From assembly GCA_016795105.1 (NCBI GenBank), contig JAEUIH010000032.1, positions 1-64,000 on the forward strand: DNA of 64,000 bases, written 5' to 3'. This document shows positions 53,290 through 63,101 of this stretch, one piece after another. Numbering within the stretch: the stretch's first letter is position 1; every line of letters starts with the position of its first letter. This stretch comes from Planctomyces sp. (GTDB taxonomy: Bacteria; Planctomycetota; Planctomycetia; Planctomycetales; Planctomycetaceae). A program made the position numbers and the translations under genes. Under the pieces are notes generated by a model. That model did not search any database and had not been told where the DNA came from. It was given only the letters and a program-made list of their open reading frames with translations.

Positions 53290-54735
53290 TCAGGAAAGAA
53301 CCCCGGGGATCACAGACCAACTCTCGGCGACTCCCGTCAGGCGTTCCTGGCGACCGTTCGTTTCAAAGTAAAGTTCATCTGGTCGCACACCCAGAGCTGT
53401 GAGAATCGTGGCATGAAGATCCTTGACTGGGTGAGGATCTTCAACGGCACGAAGTCCAAATTCATCGGTCGCCCCGACAGCATTCCCGCCTCGAACTCCC
53501 GCCCCTGCCATCCAAACGGTGAATCCATATGGATTGTGGTTGCGCCCGAAATCCCCCTGCATCATGGGGGTTCTGCCAAACTCACCAGCCCAGATCACGA
53601 GTGTTGAATCCAGCAACCCTCGCTGCTCGAGGTCTGCAAGCAGGGCTGCAGTAGGCTGATCTGTCTGGGCTGCATTTCGACGATGATAGTCTTCGTTTTG
53701 TGAATGGCCATCCCAGCCCAGTTTATCCACGGCCGTATACAGCTGCACAAATCGAACACCTTTCTCTACCAGACGCCGTGACAGCAGACACATGCGACCA
53801 AACATCGCCTTGTCACCATTCGAATCATGGATGCCATAGAGCTGTTGAGTTGCTTCCGTTTCGGTCCCCAGATCACCGATATCCATCGCCGCCGACTGCA
53901 TACGGTATGCAAGTTCATAAGACGCGATACGGCCTTCAAGATCCTCGAACCCACTCCGCTGCGCCGCATGATGGCGATTCAACGTCTGCATCAGATCCAG
54001 GGTTGATCGCTGAGCACCCCGATACTGCTCCGGAGGCTGGAGGTACAAAACAGGATCACCTTCATGTCGAAACTGTGTTCCCTGAAACGCAGCCGGAAGA
54101 AATGCGTTACTCCAGTTCGCCGATCCGCCAAGCCCCCCCACCTTGTAGAGCATGACGTAGCCAGGAAGATTCTGATTCAGTGATCCCAGTCCATAAGTGA
54201 CCCACGATCCAAGACTCGGTTTGCCGCCGAGAATCGCGCCCGTATTCATCAGATAAGTTGCCGGCGCGTGATTGGAACTCTCACTGTACATGGACCGTAT
54301 TTGACAAACTTTGTCCATATGCTGAGCAGTCTCCGGCATCAGATCCGAGACCCACTGTCCCGATTCACCGTACTGTCGCCAGCGCCATGGTCCGGCCATA
54401 AGCTCATCTTTGCAGTGCCGAAACACGCCGCCAACTTTATCCTGTTGCTCTTTCAGCGACGCCGGAATCGGCTGCCCATGGTGTTTGACCAGCTCGGGCT
54501 TGTAGTCAAACAAATCAAACGTTGAAGGACCGCCATATTGAAACAGAAAGATAATCTGCTTCGCGGCCGGAACGACGGCAGAAAGCCTCTCTCGCAGCGG
54601 GCTGAGTGGATCAATACGATCTTCAGCAGCAGTAACAGTTCGATCCGACGACGCCATCATTGCGGCCAGCGCAACCGCAGGGAATCCTGCACCCGCCGTC
54701 CTGAGAAATTGTCTGCGACTGGAAATAGAAGCCAT
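53290..54735 (-). CDS. DUF1501 (sulfatase-like) family protein with Tat signal
   Basis: MASISSRRQFLRTAGAGFPAVALAA is a Tat motif, and the body matches the DUF1501 family. It forms the usual pair with the upstream DUF1549/DUF1553 gene. Confidence 0.8.
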   Translation of the reverse strand: MASISSRRQFLRTAGAGFPAVALAAMMASSDRTVTAAEDRIDPLSPLRERLSAVVPAAKQIIFLFQYGGPSTFDLFDYKPELVKHHGQPIPASLKEQQDKVGGVFRHCKDELMAGPWRWRQYGESGQWVSDLMPETAQHMDKVCQIRSMYSESSNHAPATYLMNTGAILGGKPSLGSWVTYGLGSLNQNLPGYVMLYKVGGLGGSANWSNAFLPAAFQGTQFRHEGDPVLYLQPPEQYRGAQRSTLDLMQTLNRHHAAQRSGFEDLEGRIASYELAYRMQSAAMDIGDLGTETEATQQLYGIHDSNGDKAMFGRMCLLSRRLVEKGVRFVQLYTAVDKLGWDGHSQNEDYHRRNAAQTDQPTAALLADLEQRGLLDSTLVIWAGEFGRTPMMQGDFGRNHNPYGFTVWMAGAGVRGGNAVGATDEFGLRAVEDPHPVKDLHATILTALGVRPDELYFETNGRQERLTGVAESWSVIPGVLS

Positions 54736-54740
54736 CCGGA

Positions 54741-56810
54741 TTAGTCCATGTAACAAAATTCATTAGAGTTCAGAATGGCTCGGCAGAAATCAATGAAGGC
54801 CCTTCCGTCAGGATCGCCATTTAGGTTTTCCGTATTCTCGCCGCCCTCAGCTGTTTGGTTGCTGATGTACTGCTGACGTTGCTGGCCCAGAAATTCCCGA
54901 ACTGCAGCCAGTTCTACACCGTCTGGCTGCCTCGAGAGCACTTGCTCAAAACATCTGGTGATCAACGCAGCAACGCGTTGATCATCCGGCAGATTCTGAT
55001 CAACCTCCTGCCTGATCAACACAGACAGCGATTCGGCAACCCGTACTGATTCGGGGCTGTTCAGCAGAGCCAATGCCTGCGGTGCCACGATGGTTGTATC
55101 CCGTCGAGCACAGGATGTCGTCGAATCCGGAAGGTCAAACACCTGAAGAAAGGGTATCGGCAAACATCGTTTACGAACAAGGTAGATGCTGCGAACGTCG
55201 GTGTCGTCAACCGGATCCGTGTACCACCCCTGCATTCGACCCCCGTCGTCTTCTTTGATTGCTTCGAGGATTGCGGGCTGAGCATGAGTCAGCTCATCAG
55301 GCACAGCCGGCCATCGAGGCTTGCCGCCATCAACTGGTTTCAATAGTCCGGAAACGCTTAAAAGTGAATCACGCAGCGTCTCAGCATCGAGTCGCCTTGA
55401 GTTTTGTCGCCACAGCAACGTGTTCTCCGAACCAGGTGACTGCAGCGAAGATCGCTGTGATGACTGCCGATATGTGTCGGAATGCACGATGATCCGATGC
55501 AGATGTCGAATATCCCAGCCACTTTCAACGAACTCCACTGCCAGCCAGTCGAGTAACTCGGGATGCGTTGGTGGAGAACCGCTGTATCCAAAGTCATTGG
55601 GTGTCGCCACGATCCCTACGCCAAAATGAAGCTGCCAGAGACGATTCACGAAAACACGAGATGTCCATGGATTCGCCGGATCAACAATCCAGCGAGCCAG
55701 TGCAAGTCGCCGGCCACTTGAAGCGTCTGACTTTGACTCGATGTCAGCCGGGGTTGGTGACAGAACGGAGACAAACCCCGGAGCAACTTCTTCCAGAGGG
55801 CTTTGGAAATCGCCCTGTGCCAGAATATGCACGGCGGGAATCTCTGTCGAGCTGTCCGTCACTCCCATAAAGTCTTCATCGATCGGCTGCAACGACGCAA
55901 AGAACGCCCGAAATCGATAATGATCTTCCTGTGACAGAGGGTCGTACTTGTGATCGTGACATTGACAACAAGACATCGTCAGTCCCAGAAACGCTGATGC
56001 CGTTGTATTGGTCAGGTCCGCCAGCTGCTCGGCTCGATGCCTGTCTTTCTCGTCAAAGATCTCCGCTGTGCTGTCCCACTGCCCAAGTCGCAGATATCCG
56101 GTGGCGATCCGAGCATCGGTATTGTTCACCGCACCGAGTTCATCTCCGGCTATTTGTTCCAGTACAAACTGATCGTACGGCTTGTTTTCATTAAATGCAC
56201 GCACGACATAGTCGCGATACTTCCAGATGAGCGGACGAAATTCATCGCGTTCATAGCCATGAGTGTCTGCGTATCGAACAACATCGAGCCACCAGCGTGC
56301 CTGCCGCTCACCATAGTGTGGTGAAGACAGGAATCGCTCTACCACTTTTGAATATGCATCGGAACTCTGATCAGCGACAAAGGCTTCTGTCTCTTCAAAC
56401 GTCGGCGGCAGGCCCGTCAGATCAAAACTCAGGCGTCGAATCAGAGTTCGACGATCTGCTTCCGGTGAGGGTTCAAGGCCGACGGATTGAAGTCGTTCGC
56501 GAATCAGCTGATCAATGACCTGAGAATCTCCTGAAGCAACTTTCATCGGCCGAGCGGGGCGTTTCAGGGACCACAGATCAAGACGTTCGCCCCCGAACAG
56601 TCTGCGAATTGGGTTCTCCGGGTTTGTGACAGCGTCGATCTCACAAGTACTCTCGGGCAGACTCTCGGACGAAGTCCTGCTCGCACGATCTTCGGCCAGC
56701 GTCGAATCTTCGGCCAGCGTCGAATCTTCGGCCAGCGTCGAATCTTCGGTCGCATAGATCGAGAAAGAAAAGAGGACAATAATCGTGAGGAATTTTGCTC
56801 GCAGGTGCAT
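54741..56810 (-). CDS. DUF1549/DUF1553 (PSCyt2/PSD1, 'planctomycete cytochrome C'-like) protein
   Basis: CCQCHDHKYDPLSQEDHYRFRAFFAS is the PSD1/DUF1553 signature. A signal peptide is present, and the N-terminus has an EDSTLA x3 repeat from an 18-bp DNA tandem repeat. Confidence 0.8.
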   Translation of the reverse strand: MHLRAKFLTIIVLFSFSIYATEDSTLAEDSTLAEDSTLAEDRASRTSSESLPESTCEIDAVTNPENPIRRLFGGERLDLWSLKRPARPMKVASGDSQVIDQLIRERLQSVGLEPSPEADRRTLIRRLSFDLTGLPPTFEETEAFVADQSSDAYSKVVERFLSSPHYGERQARWWLDVVRYADTHGYERDEFRPLIWKYRDYVVRAFNENKPYDQFVLEQIAGDELGAVNNTDARIATGYLRLGQWDSTAEIFDEKDRHRAEQLADLTNTTASAFLGLTMSCCQCHDHKYDPLSQEDHYRFRAFFASLQPIDEDFMGVTDSSTEIPAVHILAQGDFQSPLEEVAPGFVSVLSPTPADIESKSDASSGRRLALARWIVDPANPWTSRVFVNRLWQLHFGVGIVATPNDFGYSGSPPTHPELLDWLAVEFVESGWDIRHLHRIIVHSDTYRQSSQRSSLQSPGSENTLLWRQNSRRLDAETLRDSLLSVSGLLKPVDGGKPRWPAVPDELTHAQPAILEAIKEDDGGRMQGWYTDPVDDTDVRSIYLVRKRCLPIPFLQVFDLPDSTTSCARRDTTIVAPQALALLNSPESVRVAESLSVLIRQEVDQNLPDDQRVAALITRCFEQVLSRQPDGVELAAVREFLGQQRQQYISNQTAEGGENTENLNGDPDGRAFIDFCRAILNSNEFCYMD

Positions 56811-56989: not shown

Positions 56990-59965
56990 ATGCTCAGTCC
57001 CGCAGAAAAGCTGGGGTTGTCTGGCGCGACACTGGACAACTCTGTCCGCCGCGCGGTCAACCATGTCTCGGATCCAACCCTAAAACGAGTTTCCGAAAGA
57101 CTTCGTTCGAATGCTGAGGCAAACGGGGTTGTTTATGAACGCGATGGAGTGGCTGAAGCAGTTCGAATCATGCTGCGACCTCTTCTGGCCATGCCTGAAC
57201 AGATCAACTACGTCGACCATGTGTGCCTTAAACTCGCCGAAGCGCTGAAGCAACTGCCGGCACTGTATCTGGAAGATGCGGATGTACGACGAATACTGGC
57301 GATTACCGAAGACGAAGAAGCCTGGATCCGTGAAACCTGGACTCCGTTTCATCAAAAGCTGAACCCTGTCTATGGCAGGCTTGATGCCGTCTGCGACTTC
57401 ACGGCTGCAGGCTGGCAGGAGTCTTTGCAGTTCATGGAACCAAACCTGTCCGGTGTTGGCGGAATTCACTTCGCCCCTCTGGCAGAACAGCTTGTTATGC
57501 GTGATGTGATTCCTACTCTTCAGGCTCACGACCCGGAGCTTGAAGTTTCGCTGCCTCGTGACCAGCGAGATCTGTTCGTGCAGGTCCTGATCGACCATGC
57601 CAGGGCATTGGGCAGAGACTCCTGTCAACTTTGCTTTGTGGATCCCAAATACATCCATGAAGGCCCTGATGAACAGGAAGTTTTATGTCAGTTTCTTGCT
57701 GAGCGACATGGGCTCAATATACGACATGCAGACCCCACGGAACTCGAAGTTCGGGGCGATGAAATCTACTTTGGCGATCTTCGTGTTGATGTGGTCTACC
57801 GCGACTACGACATCAGAGATCTTGTTGACCGGGAACGTGAACTGGGACACCGTCTTGAAGCAATGCGGCTGGCATTTCGGCAGAACCGAGTCGTGTCTTC
57901 CATCGTTGGAGACTTTGATCACAAGAGTTGCTGGGAACTGTTGACCGATGAGAAGCTTGCTGAGCGATTCTTCTCTGATGAAGAACGTCGTTTGTTCCGA
58001 AGACACGTCCTGTGGACTCGAGTTGTCTGCGACCGTCGTACTTCGCTTCCCCATGGAAAGTCCGGAGACCTCCTGGAATTCGCCCGAGTCTATCGCGAAC
58101 AGCTGGTCCTCAAGCCAAATCGCGGATACGGCGGTGCCGGAGTCACCATAGGTGCCGCAGCAACAGAATCTGAATGGGATCATCTGCTGCAGCTGGCGGT
58201 AAAGAACGCGAACGATCCGCTGACTTCATGGGTTGTCCAGGCTGCGACTCGACTGCCGGTTCACGCATTCCCCGTCATCGCAGGCAACGGCCAGGTGTTC
58301 GAAGAACCATTTCATGCTGTCATGGGATTTGCTCCGACGGAAAACGGGCTGGGAATGCTATGCCGAGTCTCTCAGAAGCAGGTTGTGAACGTTGCTCAGC
58401 ATGGGGGACTTGCCGCAATGCTGGTTGCTCATCCTCCGAGTGAACTGCGTTTACGAAAGCGAACGCTGGTGGCATCCGATGGAATCGAGCAGACGCTGCG
58501 CAGCCAGATTGTTGAGATTCGTCATCTGGATCAGACCATCGGACTGCTTGGGTGGGACGAGGAGACAATGTTGCCAGTTGCCGGTCGGCCACAGCGAGGT
58601 GAGCAACTGGCGACACTTGAGGGGCTGAGACATTCTTTACTGGTCTCTGATCGACTCGGAGACCTGATCGAAGAAGTGGCCCAGCAGCGGGAAGATGATG
58701 AGCGATGGATGCGGGAGATTACCATTCTGAGAAGACTCCGGCGATCCTCACAGGCTTTGCCTGATGACCTGGTTCGCGCATTTGCCAAGGCCAGATCGCG
58801 AGCACTTGGAGCATGGGAAGACGCGAGAGTGCGATCCGACTTCTCTGTGTTCGAACGACCGTTTGAGAGAGTTGTCGAACTCGCGCGTGAGCGGGCCGAT
58901 GCTCTCGCTCGCGGCTCTGAACCCTTTGATGCACTGCTTGATGAACATGAACCCGGCATGACACGTTCAAGACTCGATCCGGTTCTCAACGAACTCCGGG
59001 ATCAACTGATACCATTGGTCCGCACACTGAGTGAATCGACACGACAGTGGGCAACAACGCTCCAGGGACGCCGCTTTTCTGAACGAGGACAGTGGGAACT
59101 TGCCCGAAGAATGCTTACGGCGATCGGATTTGACTTCTCTCGCGGAAGGCTGGATCGTTCAACACACCCCTTCACACTCGGGGCAGGGGCCCATGATGTG
59201 AGACTGACCATTTCCGTGCGCGAAGACGACTTTCTCCGAACAATTCTGGCAACCATGCATGAAGGTGGCCATGGTCTTTATGATCAGGGATTCCTGACAA
59301 CAGATCGAGACTGGATGCTGGGTGATGCTCCGGGAATGGGACTTCACGAATCTCAGTCAAGACTTTGGGAGAACCACATCGGCCGAAGCCGAGCGTTCTG
59401 GCAATTCTGGTTCCCGGCTCTTTCAGAATTGTTCGCAACTACCGTGGGCGATCTGAACGCTGAGACCCTGTATCGAGCACTCAATGTTGTTCAGCCGTGC
59501 TGCAATCGAGTCGCTGCAGATGAAGTCTCTTATCATTTGCACATTCTGCTGCGATATGAACTCGAACAGGCACTGCTGTCCGGAGATCTGGCGGTTGCCG
59601 ACCTGCCCCAGTTGTGGAACGAGCGAACGACCGCTCTGCTGGGAGTGACCCCCGCGAATGATGTGGAAGGTGTTCTTCAGGATGTACACTGGTCTCTTGG
59701 AATGTTTGGGTATTTTCCGACCTACACACTTGGTACCCTCTATGCAGCACAAATCGTTGAACGCTATAAAGAGGAGAACCCGCTTGAAGATGAAGTTCGA
59801 CGAGGTGAATTCCGTCCGCTGCTGAACTGGCTCAGAAAAATGGTCCACCAGCCAGGATACCGAATGAATGCCGAAGAACTTGTAACTCAGGTGACGGGTC
59901 GTGGACTGGATTCTTCTGCGTTTCTTCGACATCTTCAACGCAGGTTCACTTCGCCACAGGGTTAA
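56990..59965 (+). CDS. Fusion protein: N-terminal circularly-permuted ATP-grasp (glutathionylspermidine-synthase-like) ligase domain + C-terminal M32 carboxypeptidase (Taq-type) domain
   Basis: The N-terminal ~480 aa have the CP-ATP-grasp-2 style organisation (...VDPKYIHEGPDEQEVLCQF...LKPNRGYGGAGVTIG...). The C-terminal ~500 aa carry M32 motifs: HPFT, DVRLT, the zinc site HEGGHGLYDQG (HExxH), HESQSRLWEN, IRxxADEVSYHLHILLRYE and GxxQDVHWS. The longer ORF starts with TTG at 56981. Confidence 0.7.
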   Translation: MLSPAEKLGLSGATLDNSVRRAVNHVSDPTLKRVSERLRSNAEANGVVYERDGVAEAVRIMLRPLLAMPEQINYVDHVCLKLAEALKQLPALYLEDADVRRILAITEDEEAWIRETWTPFHQKLNPVYGRLDAVCDFTAAGWQESLQFMEPNLSGVGGIHFAPLAEQLVMRDVIPTLQAHDPELEVSLPRDQRDLFVQVLIDHARALGRDSCQLCFVDPKYIHEGPDEQEVLCQFLAERHGLNIRHADPTELEVRGDEIYFGDLRVDVVYRDYDIRDLVDRERELGHRLEAMRLAFRQNRVVSSIVGDFDHKSCWELLTDEKLAERFFSDEERRLFRRHVLWTRVVCDRRTSLPHGKSGDLLEFARVYREQLVLKPNRGYGGAGVTIGAAATESEWDHLLQLAVKNANDPLTSWVVQAATRLPVHAFPVIAGNGQVFEEPFHAVMGFAPTENGLGMLCRVSQKQVVNVAQHGGLAAMLVAHPPSELRLRKRTLVASDGIEQTLRSQIVEIRHLDQTIGLLGWDEETMLPVAGRPQRGEQLATLEGLRHSLLVSDRLGDLIEEVAQQREDDERWMREITILRRLRRSSQALPDDLVRAFAKARSRALGAWEDARVRSDFSVFERPFERVVELARERADALARGSEPFDALLDEHEPGMTRSRLDPVLNELRDQLIPLVRTLSESTRQWATTLQGRRFSERGQWELARRMLTAIGFDFSRGRLDRSTHPFTLGAGAHDVRLTISVREDDFLRTILATMHEGGHGLYDQGFLTTDRDWMLGDAPGMGLHESQSRLWENHIGRSRAFWQFWFPALSELFATTVGDLNAETLYRALNVVQPCCNRVAADEVSYHLHILLRYELEQALLSGDLAVADLPQLWNERTTALLGVTPANDVEGVLQDVHWSLGMFGYFPTYTLGTLYAAQIVERYKEENPLEDEVRRGEFRPLLNWLRKMVHQPGYRMNAEELVTQVTGRGLDSSAFLRHLQRRFTSPQG

Positions 59966-59996: not shown

Positions 59997-60917
59997 ATGC
60001 TCAATGCTCACCTGCTTTTTGGCATCGTTCTCCTGCTGCACTGTGCGGTCAATTCGGCGTGTCACGGATCACAGGAAGACGAGTTGTTCTCCGGACCTCA
60101 GCAGGGCGAACCTCTGCCAGCTTTAACAATGAACGGGGTCTATGATGAAAGTGCAGGAAAGCCTATTGATGTCTCGAATAAGATCGGCGAAGGCCCGGGA
60201 CTGATTATCTTCGTTCATGAACGGACTCGCCCAACGTTCGGCCTGATGAATGCACTTCTCCGCTTTTCGGAGACTCGACGCGACAAAGGCCTGACAACCG
60301 CTGCATGCCTGCTTTCCGCTGACCCGACAGAAACGGAAAACTGGCTGAAGCAGATTCGTCAGTATCTTCCCAGGGAACGAGAACTCCTGATTGGAATCTC
60401 GCCGGATGGGCAGGAAGGCCCTGGGACCTTTGGCCTGAACCGAAATGTGGCAATGACAATTCTGGTCGTCGAGGATCAGAAAGTGACTGCCAACTTTACT
60501 CTTGTGCAACCCGGGATTGACGTTGATGGGCCAAAGATTCTGAAGGCCGTTGTTGATGTGACCGGAGGTGGCGAAGTCCCGGAAATTGCAACGTTCGCAA
60601 ATGCCGGACGAATGAACCGAGACGGAAGTCGGCCCGAACGATCCGCCGCTGAACAGGATCCCCGACTTCGTCCGCTTCTGTCAAAGCTCATTCGAAAGGA
60701 CGCAACCGCGGAAGATGTCGACGCAGCCGCAGAGGCAATCAAGATGTTTGTTAAAGAGAATCCTCAAACCGGACCCCAGATTGCTGCGATTGCAAATCGC
60801 ATTATCGATGCCGGTAAACTGGAAGACTATGGCACTCCTCACGCTCAAAGGTACCTGAAGGACTGGTCTAAATCATTTGCTGTCACGGACGACAAAAAAC
60901 CTAAAGACTCGAATTGA
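59997..60917 (+). CDS. Hypothetical secreted protein
   Basis: Signal peptide MLNAHLLFGIVLLLHCAVNSA. AGGAA sits 7 nt upstream of the ATG, and the ORF is 306 aa. Confidence 0.55.
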   Translation: MLNAHLLFGIVLLLHCAVNSACHGSQEDELFSGPQQGEPLPALTMNGVYDESAGKPIDVSNKIGEGPGLIIFVHERTRPTFGLMNALLRFSETRRDKGLTTAACLLSADPTETENWLKQIRQYLPRERELLIGISPDGQEGPGTFGLNRNVAMTILVVEDQKVTANFTLVQPGIDVDGPKILKAVVDVTGGGEVPEIATFANAGRMNRDGSRPERSAAEQDPRLRPLLSKLIRKDATAEDVDAAAEAIKMFVKENPQTGPQIAAIANRIIDAGKLEDYGTPHAQRYLKDWSKSFAVTDDKKPKDSN

Positions 60918-60959
60918 GATGTTGTCCGATTGAAGTGTCGGGCGTTTGCAGGTTTGATC

Positions 60960-63101
60960 ATGCTGAAGCTGTTCTTCATCGCGGGACTGCTGATTTCACC
61001 AGGCCAGGCCGAGGTGAATGATCGTCTTGTTGATTTTGAAACAGAAATCATCCCGATTCTGACTCGCTATGGCTGCAACTCAGGAGCATGCCACGGCGCA
61101 GCAGTTGGACGAGGCAATTTTCATCTGTCACTCTTCGGCAGCCGCCCACACGATGACTACACAGCCATTGTCGAACAGTTTGAAGCTCGCAGAACGAATC
61201 TCGCTGATCCTCGCCAAAGCCTGCTGCTGCTGAAACCTCAGGGACTGGTTGATCACGGTGGAGGAGTTCGTTTGTCTGAGCACGACACGGCGACAGATTC
61301 CCTTCTCCGGTGGATTCAGCAGGGTGCCCGCAGAAAACAGCACAGGGCTCTTGACGAACTCCGAATCACGATCACGCCACATGCACCTGCTCCTGTCGAC
61401 ACACTCCGCAGAATCACCTGCCTTGCCGACTTTAGACGTCATGATTCAGGCCTGCAGAGGAATTGCGACGTTACACACCTCACAACATTCTCCGCAGAAG
61501 ACCCCACGGCCGTCAGTATTTCTAAAGACGGCGAGGTCCGTATCAAGCGGCCAGGTCGTCATGTTGTAATTGTGAGGTATCTCGACAGGGTTATACCCGT
61601 TGAAATCCTTGTTCCGTTTGAATCCGGGGATGTGACGCCAGGCCAGCCGAGCAAACCACCAGGCCACCCGATTGATATCGTCGTCGAACACAAAGCCGCC
61701 GAGCTTCGAGTACCAATTGCAGATCCATTAGGTGACGAACAGATTGTCCGTAGACTTTCTCTGGATCTCGCCGGCAGAGTCCCACTGGCGATGCCAGAGC
61801 ATCTGAAGTTGTCTGCACGACCCCTGGACCGCAAACCTCTGATTGACGAACTCCTTAACTCGGAAGAGTTCGTCGACTTCTGGACGTTTCAGATGATGCA
61901 AATGCTGATGCTGAATTCAGTCGGAGACACAAACGTCGCGACGAACTGCCAAACATGGATGAAGTCCATGGTGGCCCAGGATGCTTCAATGGCCGAAGTC
62001 GTCAAAGATCTCCTGGCCGCCGAAGGCCCGGTTGCCAACAATGGGCCAGCAGCGTTCTATCTGGTTCGAACCGATGCCAGAAGTCAGGCTGAATATCTGA
62101 CCGAGTCATTCGCAGGTATTCGACTTCGGTGCGCCAACTGCCATGATCATCCCCTCGATCGCTGGACTCAGGATGACTATCATGGACTCTCAGCCATCTT
62201 TGCGAGTGTATCACGCGGAACGGAAATTCGCAGGAACGGCAGAGGTACCGTGATACATCCCGGAACAGGACTTCCTGCGATTCCAAAGATCCCCGGCCGG
62301 GATCTGAATCAAGATGTGCAACTCTCTTCTGAGCACGTCGCTGACTGGTTGCTCGACACCGAGAATCCACTATTTGCCAGACACTTTGTAAACCGCGTCT
62401 GGTCGCTGTTGACCGGTCGAGGACTTGTCCATCCGGTTGATGATCTGCGTCCGACCAATCTCTCGCCTCTTGAACCTGTACTCACACGCCTGACCAGCGA
62501 CTTTGTCGAATCCGGGTATCGACTGAAGCCATTGCTGAGAACAATCTGTTCAACAGACGTATACGCGCGTTCGTCACATCCAGATCGGACCTACACTGAT
62601 CTTCCAGGACTCTTCGCTTGCTCACAAAATACACCACTGTCGGCTGAGGTGCTGCTGGACGCCATTTGTGATGTGACTGGCGTCGCGGAGTCGTTCGATG
62701 GATATCCATTGGGAACAAGAGCAATACAGCTTCCGTCATCGAAACTTCTTCCTGAATCGCTGAATCTGCCTGGACGATGTCCTGAGCCAGTCGGATGTGC
62801 CTCAGGAAATGAGAATCCACAACCCGACGTCTCGACCTTTCTCGGACTTCTGAATGGTCCACTTATCAACCATCGACTGCAGCACGAGTCCTGTTTTCTG
62901 AATCAGGCCCCGTTTAAGAACCGACCAGTCAGCGACCAGATACGTGAAATCTATCTACGGGCTCTCAACCGCCAGCCAACTCAGGCAGAAGCCGATCTCT
63001 GGTCTCGACATATTTCCATGACGAACTCGTCGACTGAGAAACAGGAGGTTCTGGAAGACCTGTTGTGGAGCATAATTGTGAGCAGGGAATTCAGCCAGTA
63101 A
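60960..63101 (+). CDS. DUF1549/DUF1553 (PSCyt/PSD1) family protein
   Basis: The N-terminal YGCNSGACHG is a PSCyt-type CxxCH-like motif, and the later CANCHDHPLDRWTQDDYHGLSAIFAS is the DUF1553 signature. Signal peptide MLKLFFIAGLLISPGQA. The track ORF starts with TTG at 60930. Confidence 0.75.
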   Translation: MLKLFFIAGLLISPGQAEVNDRLVDFETEIIPILTRYGCNSGACHGAAVGRGNFHLSLFGSRPHDDYTAIVEQFEARRTNLADPRQSLLLLKPQGLVDHGGGVRLSEHDTATDSLLRWIQQGARRKQHRALDELRITITPHAPAPVDTLRRITCLADFRRHDSGLQRNCDVTHLTTFSAEDPTAVSISKDGEVRIKRPGRHVVIVRYLDRVIPVEILVPFESGDVTPGQPSKPPGHPIDIVVEHKAAELRVPIADPLGDEQIVRRLSLDLAGRVPLAMPEHLKLSARPLDRKPLIDELLNSEEFVDFWTFQMMQMLMLNSVGDTNVATNCQTWMKSMVAQDASMAEVVKDLLAAEGPVANNGPAAFYLVRTDARSQAEYLTESFAGIRLRCANCHDHPLDRWTQDDYHGLSAIFASVSRGTEIRRNGRGTVIHPGTGLPAIPKIPGRDLNQDVQLSSEHVADWLLDTENPLFARHFVNRVWSLLTGRGLVHPVDDLRPTNLSPLEPVLTRLTSDFVESGYRLKPLLRTICSTDVYARSSHPDRTYTDLPGLFACSQNTPLSAEVLLDAICDVTGVAESFDGYPLGTRAIQLPSSKLLPESLNLPGRCPEPVGCASGNENPQPDVSTFLGLLNGPLINHRLQHESCFLNQAPFKNRPVSDQIREIYLRALNRQPTQAEADLWSRHISMTNSSTEKQEVLEDLLWSIIVSREFSQ

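Follow-up and report, generated by a model that had tools for sequence, protein, structure and literature searches.

The systems most readily compared with the protein reported here are glutathionylspermidine synthetase/amidase (Gss, GspS) of Escherichia coli and trypanothione synthetase-amidase, in which a ligase of the circularly permuted (CP) ATP-grasp clade is likewise fused to a hydrolase that reverses its reaction. In the characterised CP relatives, namely glutathione synthetase (GS), homoglutathione synthetase, GspS, trypanothione synthetase (TryS), the peptide-spermidine ligases YgiC/YjfC and the fungal ligase Cp1B, an amine is joined to an activated small-molecule carboxylate, which in most cases is the C-terminus of a short peptide (PMC12568646). 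As a kind, the ligase-hydrolase fusion is already known from GspS/amidase. M32 enzymes are zinc carboxypeptidases that take off C-terminal residues, and both they and the CP ATP-grasp ligases are widespread. Here we describe a gene of Planctomyces sp. (assembly GCA_016795105.1, contig JAEUIH010000032.1), lying within the 64,000-nucleotide stretch of DNA that was analysed (the window), which encodes a predicted CP ATP-grasp ligase and a complete M32 carboxypeptidase in one polypeptide. A preliminary description of the window had taken this architecture to be uncharacterised. We also found no description in the literature searched of the fusion, of its breadth, or of the links of its ligase family to TldD/PmbA and Peptidase_Mx that are reported below.

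Comparison with the known systems revealed differences in both halves. The hydrolase of Gss is an N-terminal CHAP cysteine amidase, whereas that of the window protein is a C-terminal zinc M32 domain; a Pfam scan gave no GSP_synth, GSH synthase or CHAP match. Eukaryotic-type GS and homoglutathione synthetase share 12-15% identity with the window ligase, which has no Pfam GSH_synth match and lacks the Glu that provides their third Mg ligand. From CP_ATPgrasp_1/2 (COG2308; 3n6x, which is Mfla_0391) it differs in scoring below the thresholds and in being without the classic alpha-E/transglutaminase partners. Operons for peptide modification that combine COG2308, alpha-E and transglutaminase genes were reportedly described by Iyer et al. 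in 2009, and links of CP_ATPgrasp_2 neighbourhoods to peptidases are said to be noted there and in the Pfam entry. The same logic, ATP-dependent addition at the C-terminus of a peptide or protein followed by release through a metallopeptidase, is found in LysX/LysK with LysW and in the PEARL AmmB4 with the TldD/E-like Amm12/13 (PMC12424672). In those systems, however, classical RimK-type ATP-grasp or PEARL enzymes work as separate proteins, the carrier is a dedicated one and further steps lie in between; nothing of this is evident for the window fusion. Like TaqCP, PfuCP, BsuCP and ChtCP (7a03), the C-terminal half is a complete M32 enzyme with all motifs; the eight solved M32 chains that were matched are single-domain proteins of 489-510 residues, whereas the window M32 carries a ligase of ~500 residues at its N-terminus.

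The gene lies on the + strand as an open reading frame (ORF) running from 56981 (TTG) or 56990 (ATG) to a TAA at 59963-59965 without stop or frameshift, and gives a product of 991 residues from the ATG or 994 from the TTG. The ATG at 56990 was taken as the start, since orthologues begin at the equivalent ATG (MLSPAE.LGLSG). An open frame of 2.97 kb with full-length orthologues in dozens of genomes is far beyond chance. The preliminary description had proposed a fusion of a CP ATP-grasp-like domain with an M32 carboxypeptidase in one polypeptide, and this is borne out by the single ORF, the M32 Pfam match and the profile and fold of the ligase half. It had also considered what would speak against it: a frameshift or stop separating two genes, which the intact ORF excludes, and an N-terminal half unrelated to the ATP-grasp/GSP-synthetase families, where the relation proved significant by profiles and structure, not by plain Pfam. 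The parts of the gene are as follows.

56990..59965, + strand: whole gene of the predicted bifunctional ligase-carboxypeptidase, 991 codons plus TAA (ORF list, translation, full-length orthologues).
56990..58429, + strand: predicted CP ATP-grasp ligase domain, residues 1-480, with a eukaryotic glutathione-synthetase/GspS-like fold.
58430..58495, + strand: inter-domain linker, residues 481-502, of low predicted local distance difference test score (pLDDT) in both models.
58496..59962, + strand: complete M32 (carboxypeptidase Taq family) domain, residues 503-991 (Pfam PF02074, ChtCP 7a03).

The assignment of the C-terminal half follows from Pfam directly. Peptidase_M32 (PF02074) matches residues 503-986 with E = 2.2e-162 and 541.6 bits, against a gathering threshold of 25.1, and the match covers profile positions 2-489 of 489. 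The closest solved relative is ChtCP from Chitinophaga (7a03), which aligns from end to end (E = 9e-113). The active site of M32 enzymes lies in a deep cleft, and six motifs, HPF, DXRXT, HEXXH, HESQ, IRXXAD and GXXQDXHW, are characteristic of the family (PMC7918520). All six were found in the window protein, and their conservation was followed in 35 fusions.

59165..59209, + strand: M32 motifs HPF (726-728) and DVRLT (736-740; DXRXT), from the sequence; the fusions all have H726, D736 and R738.
59258..59272, + strand: HEXXH motif, H757-E-G-G-H761, predicted zinc-binding and catalytic; H757 and E758 occur in 35/35 fusions, H761 in 34/35.
59345..59356, + strand: HESQ motif, H786-E787-S-Q (786-789); E787 occurs in 35/35 fusions.
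59504..59521, + strand: IRXXAD motif, present as NRVAAD (839-844), with N in place of I; R840 and D844 are invariant.
59669..59692, + strand: GXXQDXHW motif, present as GVLQDVHW (894-901); Q897, D898, H900 and W901 are invariant in the fusions.

The preliminary description had pointed to the HExxH motif and the downstream zinc ligands, and these are intact, including E787 of HESQ, which we take from M32 structure papers to be the third zinc ligand. Judged by its motifs, the M32 half is an ordinary domain and apparently active.

The N-terminal half required more sensitive methods. With a single sequence, phmmer against the PDB found 3n6x at only E = 0.07, and the profile of closer homologues (A1) gave an insignificant E = 0.098. 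The profile built from 70 diverse members of the ligase family (A2) was the sole one to reach significance, with 3n6x at E = 2.3e-14 and Cp1B at E = 9e-10. Homologues are numerous, with 1,612 matches in a 90%-clustered database and 1,712 representative clusters (50% identity, E <= 0.001), and most are stand-alone proteins of ~465-495 residues. A CP_ATPgrasp_2 match with E < 0.01 was obtained for 61 of 82 close homologues and 41 of 70 distant ones, the best values being 2.5e-8 and 3e-9. An AlphaFold2 model of the ligase half, computed with 82 sequences, reached a pLDDT of 91.9 and a predicted template modelling score (pTM) of 0.91. In Foldseek, this model matched, over its own full length, eukaryotic-type glutathione synthetases (1m0w, E = 1.7e-17, template modelling score 0.66), with further matches to homoglutathione synthetase, Cp1B, YjfC/YgiC, GspS and trypanothione synthetase. 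The fold is that of the CP clade, distinct from classical ATP-grasp enzymes, and neither the fold nor the sequence of TTL-type ATP-grasp proteins was found in the ligase half. Structure prediction with fold search and the PDB profile search establish the N-terminal half as a divergent member of the CP ATP-grasp superfamily. In sequence it is nearest to CP_ATPgrasp_1/2 (3n6x), in fold to eukaryotic-type glutathione synthetase. The names GSP synthetase or glutathione synthetase are unjustified, as it passes no curated threshold. Of the Pfam matches foreseen in the preliminary description, Peptidase_M32 was thus recovered at full length, while the ligase half stayed under threshold and GSP_synth gave no match.

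The catalytic positions of the ligase half were located through motif comparison and alignment.

57377..57385, + strand: R130-L-D132, counterpart of GspS R316/D318; invariant in 70 family members and 35 fusions.
57437..57463, + strand: E150-P-N152 ... G157-G158, predicted Mg/ATP-binding ExN motif and glycine pair; E150 and N152 are invariant family-wide.
57911..57937, + strand: DFDHKSCWE with K312, candidate ATP-phosphate lysine (cf. GspS K498), from motif comparison with GspS and YgiC.
58112..58135, + strand: K375-PNRGY-G381-G382, predicted ATP-binding lysine and glycine-rich loop (cf. GspS K533).
58358..58393, + strand: LCRVSQKQVVNV with R459 (cf. GspS R598, 3n6x LCRV), aligned to 3n6x.

HMMER aligned the ExN motif to LEDNL of 3n6x and to EVNTGAIGG of the glutathione-synthetase-like GSS22, and the KPNRGYGG loop to VVKEVQGSGG (3n6x), ILKPIRSGKG (Cp1B) and VLKSNGECGG (GSS22). 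Around the ExN motif, G157 is nearly invariant family-wide, and the closer sets A1 and A3 show no variation at G158; in the loop, the whole family has K375, P376 and G381, and nearly all of it G382. K375 presumably corresponds to K364 of human GS. R130, D132, E150, N152 and K375 are invariant in A2, where K312 and R459 are nearly so, and all seven residues are invariant in the 35 fusions. The pattern matches R316/D318/E330/N332/K498/K533/R598 of E. coli GspS, the numbering of which was confirmed on the sequence, and the permuted order is present, with ExN N-terminal to the ATP-binding lysines. The ATP-binding residues, to which the preliminary description had also drawn attention, are thus intact. 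A degenerate ligase was considered and ruled out, every catalytic motif being invariant.

To follow the fusion through other genomes, a scan with one genome per species was performed, which gave 572 relatives, and the best 80 of these 572 were studied as loci. The preliminary description had left it to such a search whether the same fusion occurs elsewhere. In most of these 80 loci it is present as a contiguous match from residue 1 to ~980-991 at 54-81% identity, and in 69 loci our own ORF calls gave an intact ORF of 983-1063 residues. The nearest relative, with 81% amino-acid identity, is in a metagenome-assembled genome (MAG) of Fuerstiella sp. The loci carry labels of at least six phyla, a count that is to be read cautiously: Planctomycetota (Fuerstiella, Planctomyces, Planctomycetaceae), Alphaproteobacteria (Methyloceanibacter, Micropepsaceae, Dongiaceae, Rhodobiaceae), Gammaproteobacteria, Polyangiales, Verrucomicrobiota (Candidatus (Ca.) Udaeobacter), Victivallales and one Actinomycetota MAG. 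Flavobacteriaceae-labelled MAGs agree in gene order with Micropepsaceae-like and further alphaproteobacterial loci, as do Ca. Kuenenia-labelled MAGs with Planctomycetaceae loci; the labels of these suspect loci (L036, L043, L048, L050, L051 and L006, L012, L058) are probably wrong. A mis-assembly or two-gene artefact was rejected, the same contiguous match being found in most of 80 independent assemblies. Copies of the fusion in the databases are often shortened by frameshifts or contig ends (P0002, P0003, P0016, P0017, P0023), and in L059 the fusion is broken into two ORFs, of 811 and 233 residues. Searches of protein databases thus give too low a count of the full-length architecture, which is visible only by a scan at the DNA level.

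Among the 35 fusions, mean pairwise identity is 0.65 in the ligase, 0.57 in M32 and 0.42 in the linker, where L486 and R491 are invariant despite the low identity. The two domains remain joined under strong purifying selection. In a neighbour-joining (NJ) tree of 217 ligase domains, all 69 fused domains fall into one clade, and the other members inside or beside it are fragments of the fusion. The single clade indicates one fusion event. Identities are similar within and between phyla, which suggests later horizontal spread of the fusion. The sister group consists of ~80 stand-alone proteins of ~50% identity from Pirellulales, Isosphaeraceae and related groups.

The stand-alone ligases provided the strongest evidence on the meaning of the fusion. 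The sample comprised 84 loci, of which 80 were metagenome loci of distant stand-alone ligases (31-44% identity to a distant family representative) and four were obtained by exact look-up. A TldD and/or PmbA gene adjoins the ligase in 34 of the 84 loci, and in 24 of the 50 that have at least 1.5 kb of upstream flank. The TldD/PmbA pair is usually divergent from the ligase, twice co-directional, and it recurs in several otherwise different contexts; in an Anaerolineales locus (L082), a PmbA/TldD-family gene and an M42 peptidase gene lie directly downstream of the ligase. In another branch, a ~250-residue Peptidase_Mx gene with HExxH overlaps the start of the ligase (L169:837-2911, L170:5249-7326), and in four database clusters (P0204, P0270-P0272) Peptidase_Mx is fused to the ligase N-terminus. 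At least three times, the ligase family has thus gained a zinc metallopeptidase as partner, whether through fusion or through adjacency. Since the family is repeatedly linked to metallopeptidases, the M32 fusion would reflect a shared pathway and not an accident, and the ligase-peptidase partnership is most likely functional.

A one-sided or unrelated fusion has to be weighed here. M32 alone could be relevant, in peptide catabolism, with the ATP-grasp-like half being regulatory, serving oligomerisation or sensing nucleotides, or the two halves could belong to unrelated pathways. The divergence of the N-terminal half from every Pfam threshold and the canonical, broad-family character of the M32 half are compatible with this, and a hint at plain peptide catabolism comes from Peptidase_S46 (dipeptidyl-peptidase 7/11-like), the gene of which comes right after the fusion in four Micropepsaceae-like loci (L043, L047, L048, L052). 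We consider this reading unlikely nevertheless, given that the ligase half is the better conserved one (0.65 vs 0.57), that every expected catalytic motif is invariant, and that the ligase family has independent links to two further metallopeptidase families, which speaks for a catalytic partnership. Peptidase_S46 is the sole peptide-catabolism neighbour beside the fusion.

Further observations were made at the stand-alone loci. At L169 an M28/M20 peptidase gene is nearby. In seven loci (L106, L112, L117, L124, L125, L130, L141) an operon for a Ddl-like ATP-grasp protein, a KamA-like radical S-adenosylmethionine (SAM) protein, PmbA and TldD is divergent from the CP ATP-grasp gene. KamA is an enzyme of the lysine 2,3-aminomutase type, and the two ligases and the pair of peptidases may together form a pathway for beta-amino-acid peptides. 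Directly upstream of the Pirellulales-type ligase, a gene for a small two-transmembrane protein with ALHYLVWGWWLS was observed (L081:7521-7892, L088:5661-5942), itself preceded by a VitK2_biosynth (MqnA-like) gene; the position of this gene beside the ligase may reflect synteny or a functional link.

The surroundings of the fusion itself present a different picture. Across the 80 fusion loci no neighbour is conserved, the most widespread family occurring in 11 of 80 as lineage-specific synteny, and no small ORF within 800 bp is common to several lineages. The commonest neighbours are unrelated: sensor kinase, MurJ, arylesterase, SDR, HtpG, TPR protein, MFS transporter, amine oxidase and Peptidase_S46. 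The alpha-E or transglutaminase neighbours, or a substrate gene, that the preliminary description had expected were found neither beside the window gene nor across the 80 fusion loci, and TldD/PmbA does not occur within 10 kb of any M32 fusion. With neither a conserved neighbour nor a common small ORF, the fusion looks self-sufficient.

These surroundings bear on two further explanations. In LysW-mediated lysine/arginine biosynthesis, the LysX ATP-grasp ligase and the LysK metallocarboxypeptidase act on a carrier protein. By the same established logic, the ligase half could charge a carrier peptide or protein with an amino acid at its C-terminus, enzymes from other loci would modify it, and M32 would release the product and regenerate the carrier. 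The sequence of PEARL addition and TldD/E-like C-terminal cleavage (PMC12424672) agrees with such a scheme, as do the stand-alone relatives adjoining TldD/PmbA, about seven of which have the KamA-like radical SAM and Ddl-like ligase genes. We hold carrier-based biosynthesis to be quite improbable, however: beside the fusion no carrier gene, small ORF or modifying enzyme is conserved in the 80 loci, and to fuse the first and last enzymes of a pathway while leaving the middle steps unlinked would be unusual.

The other explanation is a cycle of tagging and de-tagging, in which the ligase extends the C-terminal tail of a specific cellular protein by one or more residues, which M32 then takes off. 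Tubulin tyrosination/detyrosination and the action of RimK on ribosomal protein S6 are analogues of such tail modification. Both domains recognise a free C-terminal carboxylate, and the strong cross-phylum conservation of the fusion (ligase mean identity 0.65) would suit a conserved macromolecular target; having no substrate gene nearby is compatible with a housekeeping target encoded elsewhere. A precedent exists in ammosamide biosynthesis, where an ATP-dependent ligase and a TldD/E-type protease act at a peptide C-terminus (PMC12424672). Against a protein target, the substrates of all characterised structural relatives are small molecules or short peptides, and the 80 loci have no conserved substrate gene near the fusion; we rate this cycle very unlikely. 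Least probable of all, in our view, is its widest form, a reversible ATP-driven tagging of a conserved protein or regulatory peptide, with one polypeptide both writing and erasing and the wider family forming a new class of C-terminus editing.

The reading that we favour, with a probability of roughly 0.5, is that of a cytoplasmic enzyme, the two halves of which would share a target, a short peptide or peptide-like metabolite, and act at its free C-terminal carboxylate. A shared target of this kind is suggested because the carboxylate chemistry of the ligase clade and the C-terminal trimming by M32 converge on it. The N-terminal ligase would, by the mechanism standard in its superfamily, spend ATP to convert the carboxylate to an acyl-phosphate and join this to an amine such as an amino acid or a similar compound, lengthening the molecule by one amide bond. 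The M32 domain would hydrolyse C-terminal residues off short peptides, and a role in one common pathway would keep the halves together. As the more likely arrangement we see an opposing pair that makes and breaks the same bond, like glutathionylspermidine synthetase/amidase, the alternative being a remodelling of the peptide C-terminus by trimming and then extending it. The activity of both halves, their common substrate and its small-peptide nature are what we infer from these comparisons. The add/remove cycle at a C-terminus that the preliminary description had proposed is plausible and gains some indirect backing from the links of the ligase family to three different metallopeptidase families; its peptide version is favoured over its protein version.

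Several results weigh against this reading. The N-terminal half is below every Pfam ATP-grasp threshold: over residues 370-420, CP_ATPgrasp_1 scores 14.4-16.8 bits against a gathering value of 23.1 and CP_ATPgrasp_2 (PF14403) 12.6 bits against 32. Alignments by hhalign of A1 with the single sequences of E. coli Gss and YgiC were insignificant. The mapping of catalytic residues derives from motifs and HMMER alignments (3n6x, Cp1B, GSS22), not from superposition. In eukaryotic GS a Glu, which we take to be E368 in the human enzyme, provides the third Mg ligand; in the HMMER alignments its position has Gly or Ser in the ligase family and is also non-Glu in 3n6x and Cp1B. In the sister clade of Pirellulales-type ligases, no M32 or other peptidase neighbour was found at three distinct loci. 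The full-length model has a pTM of 0.54 with much of residues 665-991 at pLDDT < 50, where the alignment is thin, and from it we make no claim on inter-domain geometry or communication between the active sites. Finally, an opposing pair on one polypeptide would be a futile ATPase unless regulated, and no regulatory feature was identified.

In the window, the genes flanking the fusion are a typical planctomycete set. Upstream, on the opposite strand, are a DUF1501 gene (53290-54756) and a PSCyt2/PSD1 (DUF1549/DUF1553) gene (54741-56810, - strand), which form the usual planctomycete gene pair; in the PSCyt2/PSD1 protein, the peptide EDSTLA is repeated perfectly three times after a hydrophobic N-terminus. 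Farther upstream lie genes for HD-domain, zinc-ribbon and xylose-isomerase-like proteins. Downstream, an ORF of 306 residues (59997-60917, + strand) begins 32 bp past the fusion stop, followed by a second PSCyt2/PSD1 gene at 60930-63101. The 306-residue product has a hydrophobic N-terminus and no Pfam match; its gene could be co-transcribed with the fusion and is not kept beside the fusion in other genomes. An NCBIfam scan of the full fusion protein gave no match, and no homologue was found among the PLSDB plasmids.

Taken together, a conserved ligase-M32 fusion offers a Rosetta-stone clue to a common substrate of the two enzymes, and a sizeable ligase family appears to work with a metallopeptidase partner. 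Identification of the substrate could uncover a new small-peptide metabolite, or a reaction that edits peptides, in bacteria that are abundant in soil, freshwater and the sea, as well as a physiological role of TldD/PmbA-type proteases. It could also give a compact ligase/hydrolase pair, a possible biocatalyst for peptide C-termini.

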